A DNA stretch of 64,000 nucleotides from Naegleria gruberi (Eukaryota): NCBI GenBank assembly GCA_000004985.1, contig GG738896.1; one strand, written 5' to 3'. Each line of letters opens with the position of its first letter. Position 1 is the first letter of the stretch. The notes beneath the pieces were generated by a model. It ran no database searches and was not told where the DNA came from. It saw only the letters and a list, made by a program, of their open reading frames with translations. Of the stretch, positions 4,092 to 63,124 are shown one piece after another. The translations under genes and the position numbers were made by a program.

Positions 4092-5693
4092 ATGAACTTT
4101 GAAAAAAAAATGTTTGACTTGTTTCGCTCCAAAAAGAAGGATGAACATGAAGAGAAATCCCTCTCCTTTCTCGTAATACCACATGGCAAGATTCATAATG
4201 ACTCATTCAAAATGTTGCCTATTGATATTGTGCTGGAAATTTTGGATTATATTTGTGGGGACGAGCAATTGATGATGAGCTTGACGAATTGTCATGATCA
4301 GGCGTTGAATAAGCAGATTCCTAGGGAGACTCCATTCAGAGAGAGGAAATGGACGCCTCCTGCATGGGATGTCAATTCCGATTTTAATGAATTAAAATTT
4401 GATGAGAAAAAGTTTTTCAAACAATACTTTGGAAAGTTCCCGAATAGAGATTCTAGTTGTCCAAGGCTGCTATTTAGAAAATTAGATTTGGGAGTGGATA
4501 GGTATTCTCCAAAAGAATTGTGTAGACTAATTCAAATTGTAAATTATGGAAATAAGCCAATTGTGATTGAGAAAACTTTAGCTCGTCAAATATTGCAGTG
4601 TATAAGAAGATTTGGACAAGTAAACGAGGATAAAGAAAAGGATATTGAAAAGAAAATGTTTAAATATTTGAGATATGTATTAAGGAATGGTCTGTGTGAG
4701 AGAGTTATTGGATTGGATATTGCTGGTATTGAAACATTTCCTTCTTTAATTAATGAGTTAGTACTAATGTGTCCGAATATAGAACATGTTAATCTTGGTT
4801 CGTATAACCAGAAGGAAAATTACCATGCAAAGCAAATTCTGATGAAAGATGTCAATGAGTCCATGATGATCTTGAAATTGTTAAAATCCTTTAGATGGAC
4901 TGGACATCATTTTGGTGAAGGTTTTATTGATGAGTTATCGAAACATACACCTCTATTGGAGAAGCTGGTTTTAAAATGTGAAACATCTGTTATATGTTGT
5001 CACGAAGCCATCCTAAATTGGAAGAATCTCAAACTAATTGTTTCAAAAATTAGTCCACATATTTATTCAAGAAATAATGGAACAGCAGAAGATCTATACA
5101 AGTTTTTCAAGAATATAAGTCAATTAGACAAGTTGGAAAAACTTGTTTTGAATGAAAACAATATTAAGGAAGGAAATATTCAATCATTACCTCATTCTCT
5201 GACATGTTTAGATTTGAGTAATACCCAGATTCCAGACAACTTTCTTCAAATTGTCGCATCCTTGCCCCAATTAAAGTCTCTGGGATTGAACTGTTATTAT
5301 GGAGGAAGGGATTCTTTGAAGCATCTCGTTGGATTGAAACACACTCTCGAAGAATTACACATAACCCAAAGTAGTAGTTGTGGAGATGAAGGTGTGATGT
5401 ATATTTCGCAAATCGAATCTCTAAAGAGACTATTTCTAATGAACCTAAGCCAAGATCAAATCAATGACACTGGAGGTTATGAGCTAGCCAAATTGAAAAA
5501 TTTGGAAATTGTTGGTCTTGAATATTGTTACATTTCACACAAAACAGTTAACAGTATTGCAGCAAGTTGTCCTAACATTAAGAAAATCCACATTGATGGA
5601 TGCCACAACATTAAGAAACACAAATTATCAAAGCAAGCCTTCTCTTTAATAGATGATGCATCTTATGCTGTTAGAATTTCAGAAGATCTATAA
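4092..5693 (+). CDS. F-box-like / leucine-rich repeat (RNI-type) protein
   Basis: True ATG at 4092. N-terminal F-box-like LPIDIVLEILDYI. C-terminal LRR_RI repeats (LDLSNTQIPDNFLQIVASLPQLKSLGL.., NLEIVGLEYCYISHKTVNSIAASCPNIKKIHIDGC). Confidence 0.7.
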   Translation: MNFEKKMFDLFRSKKKDEHEEKSLSFLVIPHGKIHNDSFKMLPIDIVLEILDYICGDEQLMMSLTNCHDQALNKQIPRETPFRERKWTPPAWDVNSDFNELKFDEKKFFKQYFGKFPNRDSSCPRLLFRKLDLGVDRYSPKELCRLIQIVNYGNKPIVIEKTLARQILQCIRRFGQVNEDKEKDIEKKMFKYLRYVLRNGLCERVIGLDIAGIETFPSLINELVLMCPNIEHVNLGSYNQKENYHAKQILMKDVNESMMILKLLKSFRWTGHHFGEGFIDELSKHTPLLEKLVLKCETSVICCHEAILNWKNLKLIVSKISPHIYSRNNGTAEDLYKFFKNISQLDKLEKLVLNENNIKEGNIQSLPHSLTCLDLSNTQIPDNFLQIVASLPQLKSLGLNCYYGGRDSLKHLVGLKHTLEELHITQSSSCGDEGVMYISQIESLKRLFLMNLSQDQINDTGGYELAKLKNLEIVGLEYCYISHKTVNSIAASCPNIKKIHIDGCHNIKKHKLSKQAFSLIDDASYAVRISEDL

Positions 5694-5784: not shown

Positions 5785-7044
5785 TTAGTGAATCAAATCA
5801 ACAATGACTCTTTGAAGATCACCATTATACTTATTCAACAAAATTAAATTGGAAACTTCATCAACAAATCCCATGTCTCTCAACAATGCGAGCTCAGTTT
5901 GGTAAAGTGTTGGTTGTGGTTGAACAATTGGTTCTTGGACTACAACAACTGGTTCTTCAACAATTGGTTGTTGAATTGGGTTCAATGGATGAGGAACTTG
6001 GTAAACATTCACTGGTTCAGGAACAATAACAGGTTCTTCTACAACAACAGGTTCTTCGACAGGTTCTTCAACAACAACTGGTTGTTCTTCATATAATTGG
6101 TTATCAATAACAGTTTCTTCTTCCTTCTTTTCAGCACCAAAGATATTTCTCAAGAAACAAGCTGATCTAGGTTGTTGTTCAGTGAATGAGTGAGAACCAC
6201 CAAAGTGAGCATTTCTAACAGTTTCAGATGCAAAACAATCTTCACAAAAGTCAAAATCATCACAGTCATCACACTTGAATCTCTTTCCAACAAAAGCATA
6301 CTTTCCACAACCATCACAAGTGACACCAAAGTGTGGGACTTGAACCTTGTCAATATTTTCTCTGACAAAATCATTAACGTTCAATCCATTCTTCAATTGT
6401 TCAACATCAATATCAACTTCAAGAACATTATCACCGTCCATAGTCTTTTTGAACATGAATGGACAATGTGGATGATTTTCTGGAAGAGGATGGTGTCTTG
6501 GTCTTCTAAATGGACAACCACCTTGTCTTCTACCTTTCCAATATGGACATTCACGTTTTTCTTCTTCTGGTTGCCTTGGTTTTTCTTCTTCCTTCTTCAA
6601 CAAGATGACAGCAATTCTAAAAACTGATCTAATAGCACTTGTTCTACTTTCTCTACAAAGTTGAATACCATAAGCAAGTTCTTCATCACTAGAAATATCA
6701 ACCCAGTGATTTTCATCGTCTTGATAACGAATTAAAGCATTTTCGAGAGTTAAACCACACTTTTCAGTCAAATATCTAGTCAAGTCAGCATAATTTGTCA
6801 ATACTCTTTCACCTCTACGAATAGAAGTTGGCTTTAAAGTTTCCAAAGCAGAGAGATCTTCCTTCTTGGTTTCAAACACTAAAACCTTAACGTGAATAGG
6901 CTTTGGTTGTTGTTGTGCTGGTTGGAAAATATTGTGGAGGTTTGGAAGTTGTTGTTGATGTTGTGGCATTGGTACTTGTTGGCCGTTAGTATTATTGTTA
7001 GCAAGGATTGGATGGTAGATTAAATGTGATGATGGAAAGGACAT
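5785..7044 (-). CDS. p62/SQSTM1-NBR1-like autophagy receptor (PB1 - ZZ zinc finger - UBA)
   Basis: PB1 with OPCA motif (RYQDDENHWVDISSDEELAYGIQ). ZZ finger (CDGCGKYAFVGKRFKCDDCDDFDFCEDCF). C-terminal UBA (LALLRDMGFVDEVSNLILLNKYNGDLQRVIVDLI). Single exon with an A-rich context at the ATG. Confidence 0.8.
   Translation of the reverse strand: MSFPSSHLIYHPILANNNTNGQQVPMPQHQQQLPNLHNIFQPAQQQPKPIHVKVLVFETKKEDLSALETLKPTSIRRGERVLTNYADLTRYLTEKCGLTLENALIRYQDDENHWVDISSDEELAYGIQLCRESRTSAIRSVFRIAVILLKKEEEKPRQPEEEKRECPYWKGRRQGGCPFRRPRHHPLPENHPHCPFMFKKTMDGDNVLEVDIDVEQLKNGLNVNDFVRENIDKVQVPHFGVTCDGCGKYAFVGKRFKCDDCDDFDFCEDCFASETVRNAHFGGSHSFTEQQPRSACFLRNIFGAEKKEEETVIDNQLYEEQPVVVEEPVEEPVVVEEPVIVPEPVNVYQVPHPLNPIQQPIVEEPVVVVQEPIVQPQPTLYQTELALLRDMGFVDEVSNLILLNKYNGDLQRVIVDLIH
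5990..6100 (-). repeat. Imperfect 15-18 nt tandem repeats inside the p62-like CDS, encoding (EEPVVV)n
   Basis: Protein segment EEPVVVEEPVEEPVVVEEPVIVPEPV. On the plus strand it appears as repeated ggttcttc(a/g)acaacaac units. It also creates the antisense shadow ORF 5899..6096. Confidence 0.5.
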
Positions 7045-9309: not shown

Positions 9310-9495
9310 TTTTTTCTTCCTTTTAATATTACTAAGCCCCTTCCAAAATACCAGAATATCAGAGCTATAATGTTGCACAAAAGGAATATTCAATACCGTA
9401 TTATTTCTAGGTGAATGATAGTAACAATATATCAATTTCTAATCAAAATTAAATTGAAGAATTGGCATCGAGAAGTAAAACAAGCCTTTAAAAAA

Positions 9496-12042
9496 ATGAG
9501 AAGAGGAATTAACACACTTTCCAAACTTTCTTCGAAGAGTTTGACAAGACAACAATCTTTGATTGCTAGATTTTTGGTGGAGCAATGTAGAATGTTTTCT
9601 TCATCGGGAGTGAAACTCTCAGAAGGTATTACAACAACACCATACCTTCCGAGAGCATCAATTGAAGAGCAATTTTTCAAAGTTTTTGCTAAAAAGAAGG
9701 ATTTGCCTGAAAGTACTGATGATGGAAAGGTTGTTGCACCAGCTGAGAAATTATCTGGAGTTTTGATTTTAGGACCAAAAGGATCTGGAAAGACAACGTT
9801 TTTAAGCAAAACGATTAGAAAAGTTAGAGAACAAGATAGTAATATTTTGGAAAACGATGGTGTACACACCATAGTAATTGATTTGGGAAGTATCAAATCA
9901 TGGATTCAAACATATTCTACAACAAACAAATTCCAAAAAGCATCAAGCATTTATTTAATTAACACTCTTACAAATCAATTGGAAAAAGAATACGAAAGAT
10001 TTAAGAAGAAACATGAAATTATGTTAAAGAATGAAAAAGTTGAACCAAGTACTACTGTCACATCATCAAATCAAGAGCAAAAACCAATAGAAAATGAACT
10101 CACCACCACAGAAGAGGAAGAGCATCACGAGACTGGACTGAAGGCTGTTGTTCAAGTTCTTGAAGCTTGGGTTGAATATTTACAAGAAGTGAGAAATGTT
10201 CAAGAAGAACTCTCAGAAAAGGATATTTCCGTAGCTCTTGCCAAGTTCATGAATTTATTAGCTCAAAATTCCTTCTCAAAGACTGTTATTTTCTGTGATG
10301 ATTACCAAGAAATGTTTGAACATCCACAAACAAATAAGGCCTATTTTACCATGTTCCCATTCATTGAAATTTTGAAACTCCCAGATAATATTGAATTCGT
10401 TTACGCTTGCGAAGAAAAAACAAATCTTTTCAAATATACAAATACATATCGTGGAAAATCGGAAAAGCATAATTTGATTAACTTCGGAAGACTTAGTAAT
10501 GAGGATGTAGACTTATTCTTGGAAAATTATAAGAAAACCAATGAGAATCCTTTATTGGAACATCCAGAAGAAATCAAAAGACTTACCAACAACTTTATCG
10601 GAGACATTGTGCACCTTCTTAATAATTATAGATCATTTGAGGATTACATTAGAGACTCTAAACAAAATTATCAACACAAGTTAGTTAAGTCAATTTTCGA
10701 AGAAAAGCTTGGTAACGTGAGAAAAGTTATAGCTTTCCAAAAGCAAAAGGATCAATTAGAATCAGGAGAATTTGCCAATATCACCATCGAAGACAAACCA
10801 TTTACTATTGGTGATATTACATTTAATAACCAAGAAGAAGTTACCATGTGTATGGATAGCAGTAGACTTAATTTTTACAATAATGCATTCGATTGGTACC
10901 TTTCTAGAAATGATTACTCTGAGAAATACAACTCTTCTCTCATGGAATCAACCTTACTGGATACAAATATTTGGTATAGAATTTCTTCGAAAAATGGAAC
11001 CAAGTACAAGTTCAGAAATTCGATGGCCGAATCTGTTTTCAAGCAAAATTTGGCAAATCACTTGTATGCCACAAAGTTCAACCTTCACTCTACTAGATCA
11101 GAAAGGATAATGTCTTTGTGGTTGGCCAAGACACCTTTCCCAAAGAAGAGAAATGCATTGATTTTGGAACTTCTTGCTCGTCTTTTGGAGGATCAATCCC
11201 AAATTATTGGAAAAGTAGAATATAGAGCTGGTAAGAAGCTAGAAATTTTGAAAGAAAAATTGAAGCAAAGAATCAAGCCAAAGACTGAAATTGATGCATT
11301 GCTTGAACAAGAGCCAAAGTTAGACATGAAGGGTTTGTCTGTTTGTTTGAATCAACCTAGTCCTCTCATTTCATTCTTCGGTAGAGATCTTTCTGACTTC
11401 TCCAAGGGGTCTCTGATATCTATTAAGCCTGGATCACCTCCATTCAATGTAAATATTCATGAGGTTTCTTCAGACAGTCAAGTTGCCGAAGCTCTCAAAT
11501 CCATTTGTGAAAAAGACTTATTGGATGACATTCATATTGTTTATCCAAAGTATAGTTTGTATAATGACATTGATGTTGTCATTGCAACAAAGGGTGAATC
11601 TGGTCTCGATGTATTTACAATAAGAATTGTTGAAGGAAATGGATTTGGTAAGAAACCAGTTGACTTCCAAGATACTTCCAATGTTAAGAATTATATTTCT
11701 GTTGTCAATAGTTTGAAATCAAATAATTTTGAATCTGTGAATCATCATTTTGCTCTCTTTGCTTTGGAAAAGACTCACACCAACGTAAAGAATTACAAAC
11801 TGTACATTCCAGAAGATTTGGCATCATTATTGCCTAAAGTAACAATCTCATATGTGGAAGATTACTTTACAGAAGATACTGAAAGAATTTCGCAATACTC
11901 CGAATATCTTCAACAATTAGAGGAAGAACTCAAACAAGAGGAGAATGATGAATTGAACTTTGGTGATACTAATACTGTTGAAGCAATGATGTCCCAAATG
12001 GGTCACAAGAATTTGCCATGGTACGATAAGGTTGACATGTAA
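9496..12042 (+). CDS. P-loop NTPase of unknown function (Walker A GPKGSGKTTFL; Walker B-like HTIVIDLGS), with a basic Ser/Arg-rich N-terminus that may be an organellar presequence
   Basis: The ORF track starts at TTG 9415. The first ATG is at about 9496 (aaaaaATGAGAAGAGG). 848 aa with no recognisable partner domains. Confidence 0.5.
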   Translation: MRRGINTLSKLSSKSLTRQQSLIARFLVEQCRMFSSSGVKLSEGITTTPYLPRASIEEQFFKVFAKKKDLPESTDDGKVVAPAEKLSGVLILGPKGSGKTTFLSKTIRKVREQDSNILENDGVHTIVIDLGSIKSWIQTYSTTNKFQKASSIYLINTLTNQLEKEYERFKKKHEIMLKNEKVEPSTTVTSSNQEQKPIENELTTTEEEEHHETGLKAVVQVLEAWVEYLQEVRNVQEELSEKDISVALAKFMNLLAQNSFSKTVIFCDDYQEMFEHPQTNKAYFTMFPFIEILKLPDNIEFVYACEEKTNLFKYTNTYRGKSEKHNLINFGRLSNEDVDLFLENYKKTNENPLLEHPEEIKRLTNNFIGDIVHLLNNYRSFEDYIRDSKQNYQHKLVKSIFEEKLGNVRKVIAFQKQKDQLESGEFANITIEDKPFTIGDITFNNQEEVTMCMDSSRLNFYNNAFDWYLSRNDYSEKYNSSLMESTLLDTNIWYRISSKNGTKYKFRNSMAESVFKQNLANHLYATKFNLHSTRSERIMSLWLAKTPFPKKRNALILELLARLLEDQSQIIGKVEYRAGKKLEILKEKLKQRIKPKTEIDALLEQEPKLDMKGLSVCLNQPSPLISFFGRDLSDFSKGSLISIKPGSPPFNVNIHEVSSDSQVAEALKSICEKDLLDDIHIVYPKYSLYNDIDVVIATKGESGLDVFTIRIVEGNGFGKKPVDFQDTSNVKNYISVVNSLKSNNFESVNHHFALFALEKTHTNVKNYKLYIPEDLASLLPKVTISYVEDYFTEDTERISQYSEYLQQLEEELKQEENDELNFGDTNTVEAMMSQMGHKNLPWYDKVDM

Positions 12043-52185: not shown

Positions 52186-53826
52186 TTACTCGGGATAATC
52201 TTTAACAAGATTTTTCCATGTAGGACCGAATCTTTTTTGGGCCAATTTCTTGTTCCATTCCTTCTCCAGTCTCTTTCCTTCTGATCTTGGTGTGTTTAAA
52301 AGCACAAGTTCGCAAACATCTTCATTACACATCTCGTCTATTGACATACCATTCAAAGACTTGAAAATGGCTGTTAACAGTCTCTGATCATCACAATAAG
52401 GTCCAAATTTCATAATAAGATTAACAAGAGCATTGGTTGACACTCCCCTCATTTTTTCTCCTTTAACAATTCCTGCATTGGATGAAGAAGGATCTGAAGG
52501 AGGGTGATTAGTTTCGACTGGAACAGTACTGGCACTAGGGCCATTGGATGCCTCAGGAACACTCTGTTGATGACTTGTACTATTAAGATCAATTGGTGGT
52601 ACAGAACTAATTGGAAACTCGATAATAGGTTGTTCTTGAATTTGATGTTGTAGAGATTGAATTGGTGGAGGAAGAATTTGATCATTGGTTGGATGTGGAA
52701 TCATATTGTGTAAATGTTGAGGGTGTTGAGGGTGTTGAGGCATTGATGGAGGCATTTGGATAGTGTGTTGGATCATTTGGGAATGTTGGATTGCAAAATC
52801 ATTGAAAGATGGTCCAACAGTGGAAGCTGAAGCTCCAAATTGTTGGAATGGATAACTGAGTGCTCTGAAGTGATCTGGTGGAGGTAGTGAATGAGGATGA
52901 GCACCTATTGGAATTGGTTGATTTTGCATGTGCAAAGCATGTTGTAGTGATGCACTTGGTGGAGTTAATTTTGTTTTGGATGGATGGCTGTGACGTTTCT
53001 TCTTTTTCATTCTTTCAACAAACTTTACAATCTTCTTTGAATCACTTATGAAAGGTTGTGTCTTGTTTGATTTTTTAACCTTTTTTGGTGGTGGTGTTTG
53101 AGAAGATACCTCGGTTCTCAATGTAAGAACTGAATCCATTTCCAAATCAGAAACTTCTTCATCATCATCAGAAGATGAATAATAAAGTGAAGGAGTTGGT
53201 GCACTTCCTGTTAATTTTCTCTTTCGTTGTGTTTTGACTGGTGTGAGTGTGATTTGGCTAACTTCATCAGAGTCGCTGTCACTGTTCTGCTCACTTGCTC
53301 TTCCATTATTTGGTGATGGATTAGTAAAGCAAGGAGGTGGTTGACTACCAAGAAAAACCACATCATCATCCGAGTCATCAAAAACATCAGAATTATTTCC
53401 TTCTTCTTGTTGAACGGGTGTCAAGGCTTCCTCCTCTTGTACTACTGTTGTTCTTTTTGGTGTTTGGAATGATGGTGATTTACCAAAGGTAATAATGGGA
53501 CTAATTTCTTCTTCCTGTTGACTGTCGGGTACTATTGAATTATTAATTGTTTGTTGCTGTGTTATTAATTGATTATTATTATTTGTTGGTTGGCTTTTAC
53601 CATTTGCTAATTGATTATTATTATTATTGTTGGAAGGTTTGTTATTATTTCCTACTGATGGCGATTTTGAATTATTTTGTTGTTGATGGTTAGTTGTTGA
53701 TAAAGATGAGGATGAGCCATTATTATTATTAGTAGAAGCACCACGAGGTTTTGGTGGAGAGTTGGAGACGAGATTCGGAACAGTAAACAAATCACCAAGA
53801 CTCGATAGGGAATGTGAGACTGACAT
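52186..53826 (-). CDS. N/Q/S/H/P-rich low-complexity protein with a conserved-looking C-terminal globular region, hypothetical
   Basis: The first ATG (MSVSHS..) is at about 53826; the track starts at a TTG. Poly-N and poly-Q tracts, HPQHPQH repeats. C-terminal LVNLIMKFGPYCDDQRLLTAIFKSLNGMSIDEMCNEDVCELVLLNTP. Confidence 0.45.
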   Translation of the reverse strand: MSVSHSLSSLGDLFTVPNLVSNSPPKPRGASTNNNNGSSSSLSTTNHQQQNNSKSPSVGNNNKPSNNNNNNQLANGKSQPTNNNNQLITQQQTINNSIVPDSQQEEEISPIITFGKSPSFQTPKRTTVVQEEEALTPVQQEEGNNSDVFDDSDDDVVFLGSQPPPCFTNPSPNNGRASEQNSDSDSDEVSQITLTPVKTQRKRKLTGSAPTPSLYYSSSDDDEEVSDLEMDSVLTLRTEVSSQTPPPKKVKKSNKTQPFISDSKKIVKFVERMKKKKRHSHPSKTKLTPPSASLQHALHMQNQPIPIGAHPHSLPPPDHFRALSYPFQQFGASASTVGPSFNDFAIQHSQMIQHTIQMPPSMPQHPQHPQHLHNMIPHPTNDQILPPPIQSLQHQIQEQPIIEFPISSVPPIDLNSTSHQQSVPEASNGPSASTVPVETNHPPSDPSSSNAGIVKGEKMRGVSTNALVNLIMKFGPYCDDQRLLTAIFKSLNGMSIDEMCNEDVCELVLLNTPRSEGKRLEKEWNKKLAQKRFGPTWKNLVKDYPE

Positions 53827-54103
53827 TCTTGTGCTGTAAAGCAAATGAATTTTTTTTGCTTGAGATTTGCTGAATTTTCAGAAAGCATATTGTTTAGCAG
53901 TTTGGTAATTATTTAATAACTCAAAGTTTTTTCCTACGACAAAGTTTTGTGACTGGAATCCAAGAATACTGTATTAGAAAGTTGACTGTGGATTCAATCC
54001 CATCTGATGTGTTCCAATATTGATTGACCTGATGGTGACTTAATTTTTGAGCTTTTAATTCATGTCTCTTGCAAAAATTTTAATATTTTTAAATTAAAAA
54101 AAA

Positions 54104-56778
54104 ATGAAGAGAAACATATTACCAAATGTACTTCACTTTCTTCAAAAACAATCAGAGGGCAAGATGTTGTTAACAAATAAGTCCAACAACAAAACTTTTA
54201 ATTCAAATACTTCTTCTCTCAATTTCAGTAATTGGACCTCAGAACAAGTAGCAAAATGTCTTTCCAAACCTAAGGAAGAAGGTGGTATTGGTTTGTCTGA
54301 GAACCAATATGCTCCACTCATTAAGGCAAATATTGACGGACTTGTTCTTGATATTATTTACTCATCAGCTGATGCTAACAAAAGACAAAACATTCTTCCA
54401 AAATTTGGTGTAGAAATTACACCAGAAATTAAACAAGCCTTACCCATTATCATGAATTGGTTGAAATCTTACTCTCAAGAATCCTACTTACAAAGGATCA
54501 ACAAGGCAGAAAATATCTTTGGAGTTCTGAATATTTCTTTCGAATGGCAAGGCAATGGTTTAGAGAAAATACGACCTCCTTTTGTTGGCAGATATGAAGC
54601 AATTTTAGAAACCATAGAAACAATTTTCAAGCTTGGAACATATGAAAAACCCAAAATGTCACTTATTTCAACCACCATGGGAATGGGTAAATCTTCTTTT
54701 CTTTTTGAATGCATTAGTCAATTTCTAACTAGTAAGTTTTATATTTATTTTTCAACTTCTAATCTTTCCAGACCATAAGTTAATTAATAGCTTCTTATTT
54801 CAAACACCAATTAATGCAAATATTAATACTAGTAATCTGAAAAGGCAATTAGAGGTGTTTAATTCACCTGAATGCTACTTACGTGCTGATTTTGTTAACA
54901 AATTGAACAGGGCTTTTAAAATTAGACACATAATTCCTTTTAAGTGCAATACAAAACGAGTGGATGTGAATGGTTGTAAGTATCGAATTTTTTACTATTA
55001 GAAATATTATTTCAAAAGTGTTTCGTGAAATAGTGTTGGGGCAATTAGAATGCCTTTTTTTAAATGTTGCTATTAGAATTAACAAAAAAAAAGATTTAGT
55101 AATTTTCAACACGATGGATGAATTATTGGGTAATAATACACACAAATCTACTGCAAACTTAATACAGAAATTCTCGGAATTGGTGCAACTTAATGCACCT
55201 TTTGTAGCAGATATATTTGATATTCCCTATAAATATCAAACTCATCCATTACCTTTGATAATATTGGTAGATTCATTCCATAATATCAATATGGACACAA
55301 GTTCAAGAGGTTCTTTATACAAACTTGGCCAACAATTTTTTACAACTAATTTAGAAGTTTTAAACTTGGATAAGAATATATCTTTGTCTCTCATAATTAC
55401 AGCAAACTCATTACCAAATCAGTTCGTCTCTAAAGATAATACAATATTTTCTCTTAAAGTTATTAATTTGGAGTTATTATTTGGGGTAAATATATTTCAA
55501 CAAATTACAAACGATTTATTTTTGGCAAGCCTTAATAGAAAAATATTTGAGGAATTTGGAAGTTATTATTTTGCTGAAAACAATAATTACCTTTCTCCAT
55601 ATCTCTCAAAAATCATTATATCAATTTTAATCATGTGTAGTGGTAATGGAAGGGCAATAGAAATAATGTATAGAAAATGTGGTCAAGATATTAAAAATTT
55701 AGTTACAAAGGAATTGGCAATGGATATAACAACAAGGTTTGCTATTACCTATAATGCAGAGTACTTATTGATTTTACAAAAATGCAAAGAAGTGATTGTA
55801 GAATTTGTGACACATTTTGCAGAAAAAACCTTAGAACATTGTAATGATCGCTCCAAAAAGTATTTCAAGGTATTCAGAATAATGGGTATTACAACATCAC
55901 CAAATCATTTATTATTTCCCTATCACTTTAATTCAAACCAGAACTTGACTGTTGAAGAATTACAAAGACTTGGATTGCTAGTTAAAATTGGTGTTGATGA
56001 AAAGAAAAGCAATGCAAGTTATGTGGGATCTTTTATGATGCTTGATACTTTAGATTCAAACAAAGAGATAATTGAACTGAAGAATTTAACAGAAGTATCA
56101 AATAGTGATTATTATTATTTACCAATATATTACAATGATCTTTTAACACCTTTTGCAGATCTTGGGAAATTTAAAAACCAAGGTGACCGATTTGAAAAAA
56201 CAGTAGCTTCTTCAATATGGGCTAGGTATTACTTGGGCTGTATGGAATCTAACATACCAATTGGGTCAAGCATTCCAATTACAAAGATTCTCCCTTCTAA
56301 CATGATACCTGATAATTGCTTACAAGGTTCGGTTTCTCTTAAAGGAGTGATAAAATTACACAAACCATTTACTGTGGAGTCAGATATTAACGGTCTTCCT
56401 TTTGATCGAGTGATCTTAAATTCTGACCAAACCGTATTCTCTGACATTATTTTACCTTTAACCGTTAATGGAGAACAAAGATTCATTGGTATTCAAGTTT
56501 GTTATGTAAAATCAAAAAGAACACAACCTAAGCCCTTAAAAATTGTAAGCAACATGAAACAAGTGTTGAATTATTCTTCTTTTTCGTACCTATTTATTTC
56601 CACTTACTTACCTCCAAGTATTCTTTTATTAGGTCAAGAAAAGGTAAAAAGGGTTAAGGATGGTCAATTTCTTTTTCAAAATAGACAAAAGTTTCAAACT
56701 GCCCTACCAGACAAACTTGTATCCTATTGGTGGAGCCAATTGATGTTCAAGTATTATCCTGAATTTTATGAAAATTAG
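54104..56778 (+). CDS. SAM domain + P-loop NTPase (STAND/NACHT-like) protein; split by at least one intron (tentative exons 54104..54731, 54772..54975, 55019..56778)
   Basis: SAM: FSNWTSEQVAKCLSKPKEEGGIGLSENQYAPLIKANIDGLVLDI. Walker A at the end of ORF1 (LISTTMGMGKSSFLFECISQFLT), then donor gtaagt. Walker B hhhhD in ORF2 (PLPLIILVDSFHN). Frame 0 stays open for 76 codons between 54772 and 54999, which suggests an intervening exon. The exact junctions are uncertain. Confidence 0.45.
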
Positions 56779-56888: not shown

Positions 56889-58143
56889 TTATTCCTCAAT
56901 GGCACGAACAATAAATTCCTCCACAAATTCGAAAAATGATAAACTACCATCTAGTTCAAAAGGATTTTCATGATCAAAATCTCCTGTAAATGGATCCTTA
57001 TCAGAGCTACCTGAATCTCTAATAAAGGATTGGCCATTACCAGCTCCATCATTGTTAAATTGGAGTACCTCTTTCTCCATATCCTCACCTGAATCCATGG
57101 GTGTCAAGAATTCTGATCTGAAAATGCCAGACTCCCAAGAATCTAATCTTATTCCAAAAGTTGTTAACCCATTGTTAACAGTATAGAATTTTGCTAACGA
57201 GGTTGGAATTTTTCCCCAACCATCAACTTCGAATTCTTCTGAATTCTTGAGTGGCGGTTCCGCAGAGAAGAATTCGAGCTTTTTTTCATTGAGAATATAG
57301 AGAAGATACCAAGTTTCGTCCTCACTCTTTTCTCTAGTTACATACAGTGATTTGACTTTTTCAACTAAAAGCTCAATAAGATCCGGTACCTCAGAGGCAA
57401 TTGGTTTCCAAATTTCCTCAATTATTTGTGGAACTGTCTTGCCTTTCAAATGGGACCAAGGTGAGTTGACTTGATCAATTGGAGCCAAAACTGAAACCTT
57501 TTGAAAAAAAGAAGGTTCCAAGAGGTATGGTTTCTTTTCAAATTCAGCCAATGAACAATCCCTCATCCTAGATGTGCTGCTAATTTCCTTTGCCTGATCC
57601 TGCCATACAGAACGAACACTCTTATCTCCAACAAATGTTTGCAAAGCTTGTTTGCCATACTTGGTGATATAGAGATTCTTCCACACACTTTCTTCACTTG
57701 CAATCTTGTTGAATGATTTACAAGTTGTTCCAAACTTTGAAACATCGGAAGGTGTGAGATATTGTGAAATATGTGAAAAGATAAATTCAGTTTCCAAGAT
57801 TGATTTGGCTTCACTAGTGAGAGGAGGCCATTTCTTTTCCTCTACAATTGGTTTCCTCTTCTTTCTTGGATTTTCGTATTCTTCTTGTTTTGCCAACTCC
57901 TCCAATCTTTTCTTTGTATTCTCCTCTTCAATCTTTTTCACCTTCTCCTCATGAGCTTTCTTCCACTGATCAAAATCATCAGTGGTGACTTGATCGGATG
58001 GCAACTTTTTAAAACATTGTGAACAATATCCTAAAGTTACACAACAACAACAACAATACGTGATCAATGATTATTGTGAATGACAACAAACCCTTGTTAG
58101 CTTCAGAACCAAAAAAACCACAACCTCCTCTGCAATTACTCAT
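56889..58143 (-). CDS. A20-type zinc finger + F-box protein; 2 exons (about 58143..58092, 58030..56889)
   Basis: The ORF track starts at a TTG and has no in-frame ATG for more than 150 codons. An upstream exon, aaaaaaaATGAGTAATTGCAGAGGAGGTTGTGGTTTTTTTGGTTCTGAAGCTAACAAGG|gtttgt.., joins through ..ttgttgtgtaactttag|GATATTGTTCACAATGTTTTAAAAAG. The product MSNCRGGCGFFGSEANKGGYCSQCFKK matches the A20 finger consensus CxxGCGFxG..CSxCyk. The F-box is ISQYLTPSDVSKFGTTCKSFNKIASEESVWKNLY. Confidence 0.55.
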
Positions 58144-61597: not shown

Positions 61598-63124
61598 TTA
61601 ATGATAGGTGGATTGTTGAGTGTTGACAATGTTTCTAACACATTGTTCGATACTATCGACGAATATATTCAAATCTCTTTCATGAATATTGAAGGGTGGA
61701 GTGATGAGAACAACTCTATCATTTTGTCTGGAATAATCTACGAGAATGTGATAACAGGTTGCCAATTCTTCATGGATTCTCTTGGCACTTACATGTTCAT
61801 CGAAAATCAATCCAAGCATGAAACCCATTCCACTAACTTCCTTGAAATGTGGAATGCCCTGAAGTCTTTGAACGAGTGTGGATTTGAGTTGAGTTCCCAT
61901 CACTGCAGCTCTCTGTACAAGATTTTCATCGAACATAATCTCTAAATTCTTCATTACAATTTCACAACATACTGGATGTCCAGAGAAGGTAAATTCATGA
62001 AGGAATGGATGTTCAATATTTGCCTTGAAGAGAACTTGACATAGGTGTCTTGCTAGCATCATTCCTCCCAATGGAAGATAGCCACTAGTGACTCCCTTTC
62101 CAAAAACAACAATATCTGGCTCAATTCCATAATGAGAGAGACCAAACCATTTACCAGTTTTACCAAATCCTGTCATGACTTCATCTGCAATGAGTAGAAC
62201 ACCATACTTGTCACAAATTCTTCTGGCTAATGGGAAGAAATCCTTATGTGGTTCAAGAGCTCCATTCACTCCTTGAATTGGTTCTGCAATGAATGCTGCA
62301 ATATTTTCTGGACCTTCAAGTTTGATGAGATTTTCCAATTGTTCAGCAATGAAGAAACCATTATTTGCATGTTGAGTGTGTTTCTGGAAGGAATTAACAA
62401 TAAAATCATGAGGGAAATCAATACTCAAAAAGATGCTATCCTTTGAGAAACGATCGGTTGGGCCTTTGAGATTCTGATAACCATACTCATCCTTTCCAAC
62501 TTGCTCATTGAGTGAAGAGCTGACGAAAGTGGAGCCATGATAGCAATTTCTGAATGAGATAATCTTCTTCTTTGTTTGACTATTATTTAACAAGGACCAG
62601 TATCTCTCAGCAAGGTGGATTGAAGCTTCCACTGCCTCACTTCCACCAGATGTGAAATAAACCCTCTCCATGGACGGATACTCATGTTTGGTAATGGATA
62701 CTAACTTTTCAGCACACTTGATAGCACTTGAATGAGAATAATTGTAAATATTGGGAGCAAATTCCATTGTTTTCATTTGGTTGTAAGCAACTTGAGCCAT
62801 TTCTTCTCTACCATGACCAATATGACACGTGTGTAATCCACCAATCATGTCTAAATATTGAACATTGTTAACATCCCAATAGTAAGAGTCCTTTGCTTTT
62901 TGGAAGACGATTGAGTGGACACTACTTCCCAATTCATGATTAGAATGAATGAGAGAACGATTGTCACGGAAAACCCACTCCTCTCTGGATGGAGATTCTT
63001 CAGAACTGGATGGAAAGTTTGCAGTTGATTCCAAGAATGAAGAAGGAGCTGTTAAATCAGTGGAGAGTGGAGGTTTAAGTTGGTCCTGTATTGGATTTTG
63101 TTGATATAATTTGCTTTCGACCAT
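61598..63124 (-). CDS. Class-III (omega) aminotransferase, PLP-dependent
   Basis: Signature LIADEVMTGFGKTGKWFGLSHYG (class-III D-E-V-x-T-G-F-G-R/K-T-G). GGLHTCHIGHG N-terminal motif. 508 aa in one exon. Confidence 0.8.
   Translation of the reverse strand: MVESKLYQQNPIQDQLKPPLSTDLTAPSSFLESTANFPSSSEESPSREEWVFRDNRSLIHSNHELGSSVHSIVFQKAKDSYYWDVNNVQYLDMIGGLHTCHIGHGREEMAQVAYNQMKTMEFAPNIYNYSHSSAIKCAEKLVSITKHEYPSMERVYFTSGGSEAVEASIHLAERYWSLLNNSQTKKKIISFRNCYHGSTFVSSSLNEQVGKDEYGYQNLKGPTDRFSKDSIFLSIDFPHDFIVNSFQKHTQHANNGFFIAEQLENLIKLEGPENIAAFIAEPIQGVNGALEPHKDFFPLARRICDKYGVLLIADEVMTGFGKTGKWFGLSHYGIEPDIVVFGKGVTSGYLPLGGMMLARHLCQVLFKANIEHPFLHEFTFSGHPVCCEIVMKNLEIMFDENLVQRAAVMGTQLKSTLVQRLQGIPHFKEVSGMGFMLGLIFDEHVSAKRIHEELATCYHILVDYSRQNDRVVLITPPFNIHERDLNIFVDSIEQCVRNIVNTQQSTYH

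Follow-up and report, generated by a model that had tools for sequence, protein, structure and literature searches.

A three-exon gene of Naegleria gruberi encoding a putative P-loop NTPase with a predicted restriction-endonuclease-fold domain

Gene structure

A gene was delineated at positions 54104 to 56778 on the forward strand of a 64,000-nt stretch of Naegleria gruberi DNA (assembly GCA_000004985.1, contig GG738896.1), the whole of which is referred to here as the window. The favored and fairly probable explanation is that this is an intact three-exon N. gruberi gene whose 863-amino-acid (aa) product combines a P-loop NTPase, a lid, a winged helix, and a nuclease fold into a nucleotide switch. 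In the unspliced sequence, the gene appears as two open reading frames (ORFs), ORF1 (54104-54778; 224 aa) and ORF2 (54970-56778; 602 aa), the latter having its own ATG at 54970. Splicing of 54104-54731, 54772-54975, and 55019-56778 yields a 2592-nt coding sequence without an internal stop codon. The first-pass annotation of this DNA had proposed a single gene with a short exon in its middle, and this proposal is borne out by the in-frame join and by an exon-intron structure that is kept in the relatives described below. On sequence grounds, the three-exon, single-gene reading is strongly supported.

Exon 1 (54104-54731) encodes aa 1 to 209 and the first base of codon 210, and it contains a variable N terminus, a pre-P-loop helix, and Walker A. 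It is followed by intron 1 (54732-54771), which is 40 nt long, has phase 1, runs from GTAAGT to CCAG, and uses the acceptor AG at 54770-54771. Exon 2 (54772-54975; 204 nt, phase 1-1) encodes aa 210 to 278, a conserved stretch inserted between the two Walker motifs. Intron 2 (54976-55018; 43 nt, phase 1) runs from GTAAGT to AAAG, and exon 3 (55019-56778) encodes aa 278 to 863 and ends with a TAG stop codon. All five segments lie on the forward strand. ORF1 had been described as ending at a gtaagt donor right after GMGKSS. The donor is present (GTAAGT at 54732-54737), but it lies 11 codons beyond the P-loop rather than immediately next to it. The stretch between the two ORFs that had been noted as stop-free in a third frame is indeed open from 54774 to 54998, and a frame of equal length arose in only 27 of 20,000 mononucleotide shuffles. 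Two of the three acceptors suggested earlier, at about 54770 and about 55018, work in frame, whereas the one at about 55001 (AG at 55000-55001) was ruled out because the split codon becomes TAA. A second in-frame acceptor for intron 2 is the AG at 55032-55033, which would give a 58-nt intron and remove only the residues FREIV, and it is a possible alternative to 55018.

The composition of the segments is also consistent with this gene model. With 16 long ORFs of the window as the training set, codon-usage log-odds were +0.06 for the predicted frame of exon 2 and -1.07 and -1.89 for its other frames, with a value of +0.12 for exon 3. The G+C content is 19 to 23% in the introns versus 30 to 33% in the exons. 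In addition, five other GTAAGT introns that restore long ORFs in the window measure 40, 43, 44, 46, and 52 nt when the nearest acceptor is taken, so the two introns of the gene (40 and 43 nt) have lengths that are usual in this genome.

Relatives and conservation of the exon-intron structure

An exhaustive phmmer search of 1.84 billion representative sequences with the exon 3 product retrieved eight proteins (P0001 to P0008), with E values from 1.9e-68 to 9.5e-4, the closest of which was 35% identical. A profile search with the alignment as the query added a single further relative (P0009). No match was found in a word-indexed search of 5.8 billion clusters with the full 863-aa protein, and a pattern scan of limited sensitivity through metagenome, viral, and prokaryotic genome collections likewise found no relatives. 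The relatives are protein fragments encoded on eukaryote-like metagenome contigs, including three from one JGI sample (L001, L002, and L006), one Logan contig (L005), and two short contigs.

L001 matches the window protein collinearly over Walker A (L001 positions 4983-5180; tblastn E value, 2e-11), Walker B, and the C-terminal 450 residues (E value, 5e-76). Gene models with in-frame GT-AG introns were obtained for L001 (4 exons, 806 aa), L006 (6 exons, 882 aa), and L005 (6 exons, 750 aa). In the window, L001, L002, and L006, intron 1 lies exactly 13 codons past the GK of the P-loop and in the same phase. The middle exon that follows is 204 nt long in both the window and L001, 201 nt in L002, and 210 nt in L006; it is always of phase 1-1 and is always followed by a second phase 1 intron. 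A hidden Markov model (HMM) built from the middle exons of the three relatives matched the predicted frame of the window with 22.3 bits (E value, 2.9e-5), whereas the other scoring frames reached at most 3.2 bits and the highest score among 5000 shuffles was 15.3 bits. In the more distant L005, Walker A and the equivalent of exon 2 are found within one uninterrupted ORF. Taken together, the conserved middle-exon structure, the HMM match, and the single ORF of L005 strongly support one three-exon gene.

Two further features of the splice pattern were observed. The middle exon has a length that is a multiple of three and is flanked by introns of equal phase at all four loci (window, 54772-54975; L001, 5255-5458; L002, 4984-5184; L006, 6370-6579). 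A cassette-exon isoform is possible, since skipping of the middle exon keeps the reading frame. The junction produced by the alternative acceptor at 55033 (NGL/LGQ) resembles that of L001 (KSL/LGV).

The three loci from the JGI sample differ in their state of preservation. L001 and L006 are intact paralogs, and L002 (4084-6783; JGI 3300062347 Ga0606064_0024) has decayed, having acquired a frameshift near 5826 and lost about 55 codons near 5990. This pattern suggests that the family undergoes birth-and-death turnover. In the aligned full-length models, moreover, the N termini differ among family members or are short. Judged from these sequences, the gene appears to belong to a very small, fast-evolving eukaryotic family that has a fixed core and is very rare in databases.

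Motifs of the NTPase region

In members of the ORC/Cdc6-STAND branch of ASCE NTPases, a pre-P-loop FVGR helix precedes Walker A and Walker B, which are followed by a polar residue at sensor-1 and by a lid-helix motif where GxP or sensor-2 is located. The elements of the window protein come in the same order. The pre-P-loop helix RPPFVGRYEAIL is encoded in exon 1 (54572-54607), and the corresponding family motif is R-(A/P)-P-F-(V/L)-(G/N)-R. Walker A (STTMGMGKSS; 54668-54697) occupies aa 189 to 198, including K196 and S197, and its family form is (S/T)-x-M-G-M-G-K-(S/T), with GSGKS in L005. An insert of about 160 residues, exon 2 included, separates it from Walker B (LPLIILVDSFH; 55249-55281). 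The hhhhD Walker B that had been reported within ORF2 is thus confirmed as LPLIILVDSF at aa 355 to 364, with D362 as its aspartate and a serine at the position of the catalytic glutamate. The family form of Walker B is hhhhVDSF (LGLDEC in L005), and it is followed by a strand of the form hh(A/T)ANS-x-P-x-Q. In the window protein, this sensor-1-like strand is SLSLIITANSLPNQ (55381-55422), which contains N407, and it reads AANS(L/M)P(N/G)Q in L001, L002, and L006. The lid-helix motif CSGNGRAIE (55636-55662) contains R489 and lies at the position of the STAND GxP motif or AAA+ sensor 2. Its family form is C-S-G-N-(G/P)-R-A-I-E, with F-G-L-P-R-A-I-E in L005, so that the GxP position reads G-N-G-R in the window protein, G-N-P-R in L001, and G-L-P-R in L005. 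At the level of motifs, GMGKS and hhhhD are kept in all full-length relatives, with L005 having GSGKS and LDEC.

The motif order points to a place in the ORC/Cdc6-STAND branch of ASCE NTPases, and the finer classification is less classical. NACHT and NB-ARC proteins carry DGxDE and a sensor-1 arginine in TSR or TTR, and these signature motifs were sought in the family alignment and found to be absent. The STAND definition, reportedly set out by Leipe and colleagues in 2004, is said to comprise ASCE-type Walker A and B motifs, a helical GxP domain followed by a winged helix, and a sensor-1 arginine. No arginine of the TSR/TTR type is present in this family, the strand ending in A-N-S (N407) in the window protein and in G-T in L005. 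With an asparagine or threonine at sensor-1 and a conserved arginine in the lid motif, the family looks more AAA+-like than classically STAND-like. The motifs also predict weak hydrolysis in the Naegleria clade, because the residue after the Walker B aspartate is serine, not glutamate.

The first-pass annotation had called the protein a STAND-like NTPase and had referred to proteins of the SAM-NACHT type. Pfam models of NACHT, NB-ARC, and AAA_16 did not match the window protein or its NTPase segment at E values up to 10. The HMM test proposed earlier for the assembled product, with NACHT and AAA_16, is therefore negative, and membership in a SAM-NACHT type of family is not upheld by it. One match was an exception among the nine family members, that of L006 to nSTAND_NTPase5, which covered the P-loop only (E value, 0.036; 14 bits versus a cutoff of 34). 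The wider STAND-like label is retained in part, the motif order and the lid and winged helix of a partial structural model speaking for it and the family HMMs against it.

Predicted structure of the C-terminal part

An AlphaFold prediction of aa 398 to 863 with a 10-sequence alignment had a mean predicted local distance difference test (pLDDT) score of 73 and a predicted template modeling (pTM) score of 0.78; exon 3 modeled as a single sequence had a pLDDT of 31. The fold predicted for aa 435 to 860 comprises three units. A helical bundle surrounds the GNGR motif, with a helix-loop-helix at the lid motif (pLDDT, 70 to 88). A winged-helix-like unit (55855-56034; aa ~557 to 616) follows, in which helices precede a beta hairpin (pLDDT, 55 to 85), the resemblance being one of topology only. 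The third unit is a domain of predicted restriction-endonuclease fold (56182-56607; aa ~666 to 807), which was modeled with a pLDDT of about 90. This nuclease-fold domain is the best-conserved part of the protein and was absent from the first-pass annotation.

The order of elements in the third unit is a helix (with E670), strands, FSDIILPL (with D753), RFIGIQVC (with Q770 and C772), a helix, and the strand FSYLFIST. The model thus has the alpha-beta-beta-beta-alpha-beta core of the PD-(D/E)xK topology. D753 is invariant in the family; E670 and Q770 are kept in most members. The position of the catalytic lysine is occupied by C772 in the window protein, with K775 nearby.

Foldseek comparison with the PDB gave no match below an E value of 0.066 and listed Cdn1, MspJI, Can2, MunI, BamHI, HincII, and FokI; PD-(D/E)xK nucleases were enriched among these weak structural matches. 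The helical part gave weak matches (E value, ~1) to the NLR proteins NRC2/3/4 and Sr35. Among viral structures in BFVD, the top match was the uncharacterized gp146 of Bacillus phage G (E value, 4.7e-4; probability, 0.99). The BFVD matches also include a Bacillus phage JL protein and several annotated nucleases. The structural model provides good evidence for a restriction-endonuclease fold of the C-terminal domain, and it is suggestive of a STAND-like arrangement of lid and winged helix.

N-terminal SAM-like segment

The N terminus of the Naegleria protein contains a putative SAM-like segment (54224-54466; aa 41 to 121), of which only aa 41 to 82 (FSNWTSEQVAKCL...YAPLIKANIDGLVL) align to a SAM profile, fitting its first half. 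This profile was assembled by hand out of 11 SAM sequences. The hhalign comparison with it gave a P value of 0.0016 and a probability of 16% over half a domain, and its score of 22.0 exceeded those of all 300 of 300 shuffles. An hmmsearch score of 8.9 bits was also above all 5000 shuffles, yet the match was split into two short pieces. Like SAM domains, the segment has the pattern W-x(3)-V-x(2)-C-L ... G-L-x(3)-Y-x(2)-L-I-x(2)-N-I-D-G-x(2)-L, which matches SAM helices 1 to 3. Unlike them, it aligns over about half a domain, with an insertion of 6 to 7 residues, and curated Pfam SAM models did not match aa 1 to 140 or the full protein at E values up to 10. The segment was sought in the L001, L005, and L006 models and was absent from all three, being confined to the Naegleria protein. 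The SAM domain named in the first-pass annotation is thus backed by weak profile similarity and opposed by the lack of a curated match and of any relative with the segment; on sequence evidence, its SAM identity is plausible but unproven.

Annotation status and genomic neighborhood

The public N. gruberi gene set does not seem to include this gene. An aminotransferase ORF in the window (61598-63124, reverse strand) is 100% identical to XP_002672667.1, an N. gruberi predicted protein. The gene at 54104-56778 had no self-match in the 5.8 billion clusters (word-indexed search) or the 1.84 billion representatives (phmmer), and exact protein look-ups with the spliced product, ORF1, and ORF2 returned no match. 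Because the window is N. gruberi DNA and the gene nevertheless finds no copy of itself, it appears to be unannotated.

Other large ORFs of the window encode eukaryotic proteins, including RasGEF, SGT1, EGF/teneurin with RGS, F-box, and ZZ/PB1 proteins. The upstream neighbor (52186-53844, reverse strand) is a 552-aa ORF with runs of Asn, Gln, Ser, and Pro that is transcribed divergently and shares a 260-bp intergenic region with the gene. Directly downstream lies an F-box-like gene both in the window (56889-58067, reverse strand) and in L002 (7145-8929, forward strand). The two F-box proteins showed no similarity by tblastn, and their shared position is probably a coincidence. No synteny is shared between the window and L001, L002, or L006. 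Neither terminal repeats nor a transposase was found around the gene, and the 64-kb window contains no second copy (paralog) of it. An 875-aa ORF elsewhere in the window (9415-12042, forward strand) has a subthreshold Pfam AAA_16 match (E value, 9e-5; 23 bits versus a cutoff of 32.6). It was considered as a relative of the family and rejected, since hhalign matches the P-loop only (P value, 0.008), and it is hence taken as an unrelated STAND/AAA_16-like gene.

Comparison with known systems

By analogy of layout, the closest known systems would be the NTPase-HTH (helix-turn-helix)-REase (restriction endonuclease) modules of Crinklers and the STAND-nuclease defense proteins. The combination of NTPase, HTH, and REase is described as the commonest C-terminal layout of Crinklers (Zhang et al. 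2016, as reported in PMC5289972), and passages in PMC5289972 and PMC12957317 place Crinkler homologs in free-living eukaryotes, including protists. Like the Crinkler modules as outlined in PMC5289972, the window protein would consist of a P-loop NTPase, a helical or winged-helix unit, and a restriction-endonuclease fold, and it is eukaryotic and modular with a variable N terminus. However, the window protein has neither a ubiquitin-like header nor an LxLFLAK motif (aa 1 to 150), lacks a secretion signal, has an eroded nuclease motif, and shows no similarity to any Pfam model, the comparison being one of described layout only.

STAND NTPases (NACHT, NB-ARC, AAA_16, and the Avs/NLR-like defense proteins of prokaryotes that carry nuclease effectors, such as SeAvs3) resemble the window protein in their FVGR-type pre-P-loop helix, Walker A and B motifs, lid helix with a motif at the GxP position, and winged helix, the last being only a predicted feature of the window protein. 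They also share a tripartite layout with a variable terminal domain, and SeAvs3 and plant NLRs are among the weak structural matches. The differences are that no STAND HMM is significant and that the window family has an asparagine or threonine instead of an arginine at sensor-1, together with a G-x-(G/P)-R arginine that resembles AAA+ sensor 2. In addition, the window protein has the long insert of 160 residues between Walker A and B and no C-terminal repeat sensors. Where STAND NTPases have nuclease effectors, these are N-terminal, whereas the nuclease-fold domain here is C-terminal. With the PD-(D/E)xK superfamily (FokI cleavage domain, BspD6I, MspJI/AspBHI, and LlaBIII nuclease domain), the predicted domain has in common the core topology, the acidic E670 on the first helix, the invariant D753 starting the second core strand, and the polar Q770 on the third.

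Proposed function and alternative explanations

In the mechanism proposed for the favored reading, the core would consist, in order, of a STAND/ORC-Cdc6-like AAA+ P-loop NTPase, a helical lid with G-x-(G/P)-R, a winged-helix-like unit, and a restriction-endonuclease-fold domain, preceded by a variable N terminus that may carry a weakly SAM-like segment in Naegleria. Nucleotide binding at the P-loop would serve as a switch of conformation and oligomerization. The switch would couple the nuclease-fold domain, which may bind and possibly cleave nucleic acids, to a lineage-specific N-terminal adaptor, a logic that would parallel that of STAND immune and cell death proteins and of NTPase-HTH-REase conflict modules. 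For the Naegleria copy, the sequence makes a slow-hydrolyzing switch with a nucleic acid-sensing domain more likely than a processive nuclease; sensing and switching are favored over robust catalysis because the Walker B glutamate is replaced by serine and the nuclease lysine by cysteine. The rarity of the family, the differing N termini, and the presence of decayed beside intact paralogs fit a conflict or immune gene family.

Several observations weigh against this explanation. Pfam, NCBIfam, and PADLOC gave no usable match for the full protein or for any family member, and searches of the PDB by sequence and by profile returned only noise. Walker A lacks its first glycine, and Walker B of the window protein lacks an acidic catalytic residue. 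The AlphaFold model covers aa 398 to 863, most of which is C-terminal to the NTPase core (aa 150 to 435). The (D/E/Q)xK motif is not conserved, reading QVC in the window protein, KTK in L001, QTH in L002, and HSC in L006, and QxK is retained only in L005 and P0005; nuclease activity is doubtful for this reason.

The simplest competing explanation divides the locus into two independent genes, one for a 224-aa SAM-like and P-loop protein (ORF1) and one for a 602-aa protein starting at the ATG at 54970, with the open frame between them having arisen by chance. Both ORFs do begin with ATG, and prokaryote-style gene callers likewise split the relatives into pieces. However, such a division would leave a single P-loop domain split over two polypeptides, four independent loci have all the segments in collinear order, and no intergenic space separates ORF1 from ORF2. 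Intron or out-of-frame sequence accounts for the first 17 residues of ORF2, which show no conservation. The middle exon has kept its length, phase, and sequence, and L005 has Walker A and the exon 2 equivalent in one ORF. Two genes are thus essentially excluded and must be regarded as extremely improbable.

Accepting a single gene, its product could be, in line with the first-pass annotation, a genuine SAM-STAND receptor of the NACHT/NB-ARC class for immunity or cell death, in which SAM would polymerize as the effector and the C terminus would sense a ligand. The SAM-profile similarity above all shuffles (P value, 0.0016), the tripartite layout, in which the NTPase with its lid and winged helix stands between a variable N terminus and a C-terminal domain, and the weak Foldseek matches to plant NLR resistosomes would all agree with such a receptor. 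We nevertheless consider it unlikely, given that NACHT, NB-ARC, AAA_16, and SAM models do not match at E values up to 10, that the NACHT/NB-ARC signatures are absent with an asparagine or threonine at sensor-1, as in AAA+, and that only half a SAM domain could be aligned, to a hand-assembled SAM alignment, in a segment that no relative carries. A domesticated or selfish NTPase-HTH-REase module of Crinkler type or transposon derivation, that is, a toxin or mobile-element relic instead of a host receptor, would have the identical predicted domain order and would suit the several paralogs and one pseudogene of the JGI organism, each of which lies in a different neighborhood. This origin appears quite improbable: the protein has no Crinkler header and no Pfam Crinkler match, there are no terminal repeats or transposase nearby and no second copy within the 64-kb window, the gene is tightly packed among ordinary host genes, and the pattern scan, within its limited sensitivity, found no relative in viral or prokaryotic collections. 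The nucleotide switch encoded by one intact three-exon gene remains the favored explanation.

Implications

The apparently unannotated 863-aa gene can join the reference genome of N. gruberi with a model backed by comparative evidence. What is new is an orphan eukaryotic NTPase-nuclease-fold family, apparently unannotated in the reference genome, whose functional significance may lie in a tiny lineage in which a STAND/AAA+-like switch and a nuclease-fold domain are combined. Bacterial antiviral Avs proteins and Crinkler toxins have a comparable layout, and variable N termini together with the birth and death of paralogs are signatures of conflict or immune genes. A bolder interpretation, which we hold to be unlikely at present, is that the gene is the founding, experimentally tractable member of an undescribed eukaryotic STAND/AAA+-like lineage, with a catalytically dead nuclease fold as the nucleic acid sensor and swappable N-terminal output adaptors (SAM-like in Naegleria), and thus of an immune receptor class analogous to NLRs. 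If true, such intracellular receptors would have been invented or acquired by a lineage other than the animals, plants, and fungi, and none of the current domain libraries would recognize them. Giant viruses and intracellular bacteria live in heterolobosean amoebae, whose innate immunity has, to our knowledge, hardly been explored. A candidate specific to Naegleria could be put to the test in an organism that grows in culture.

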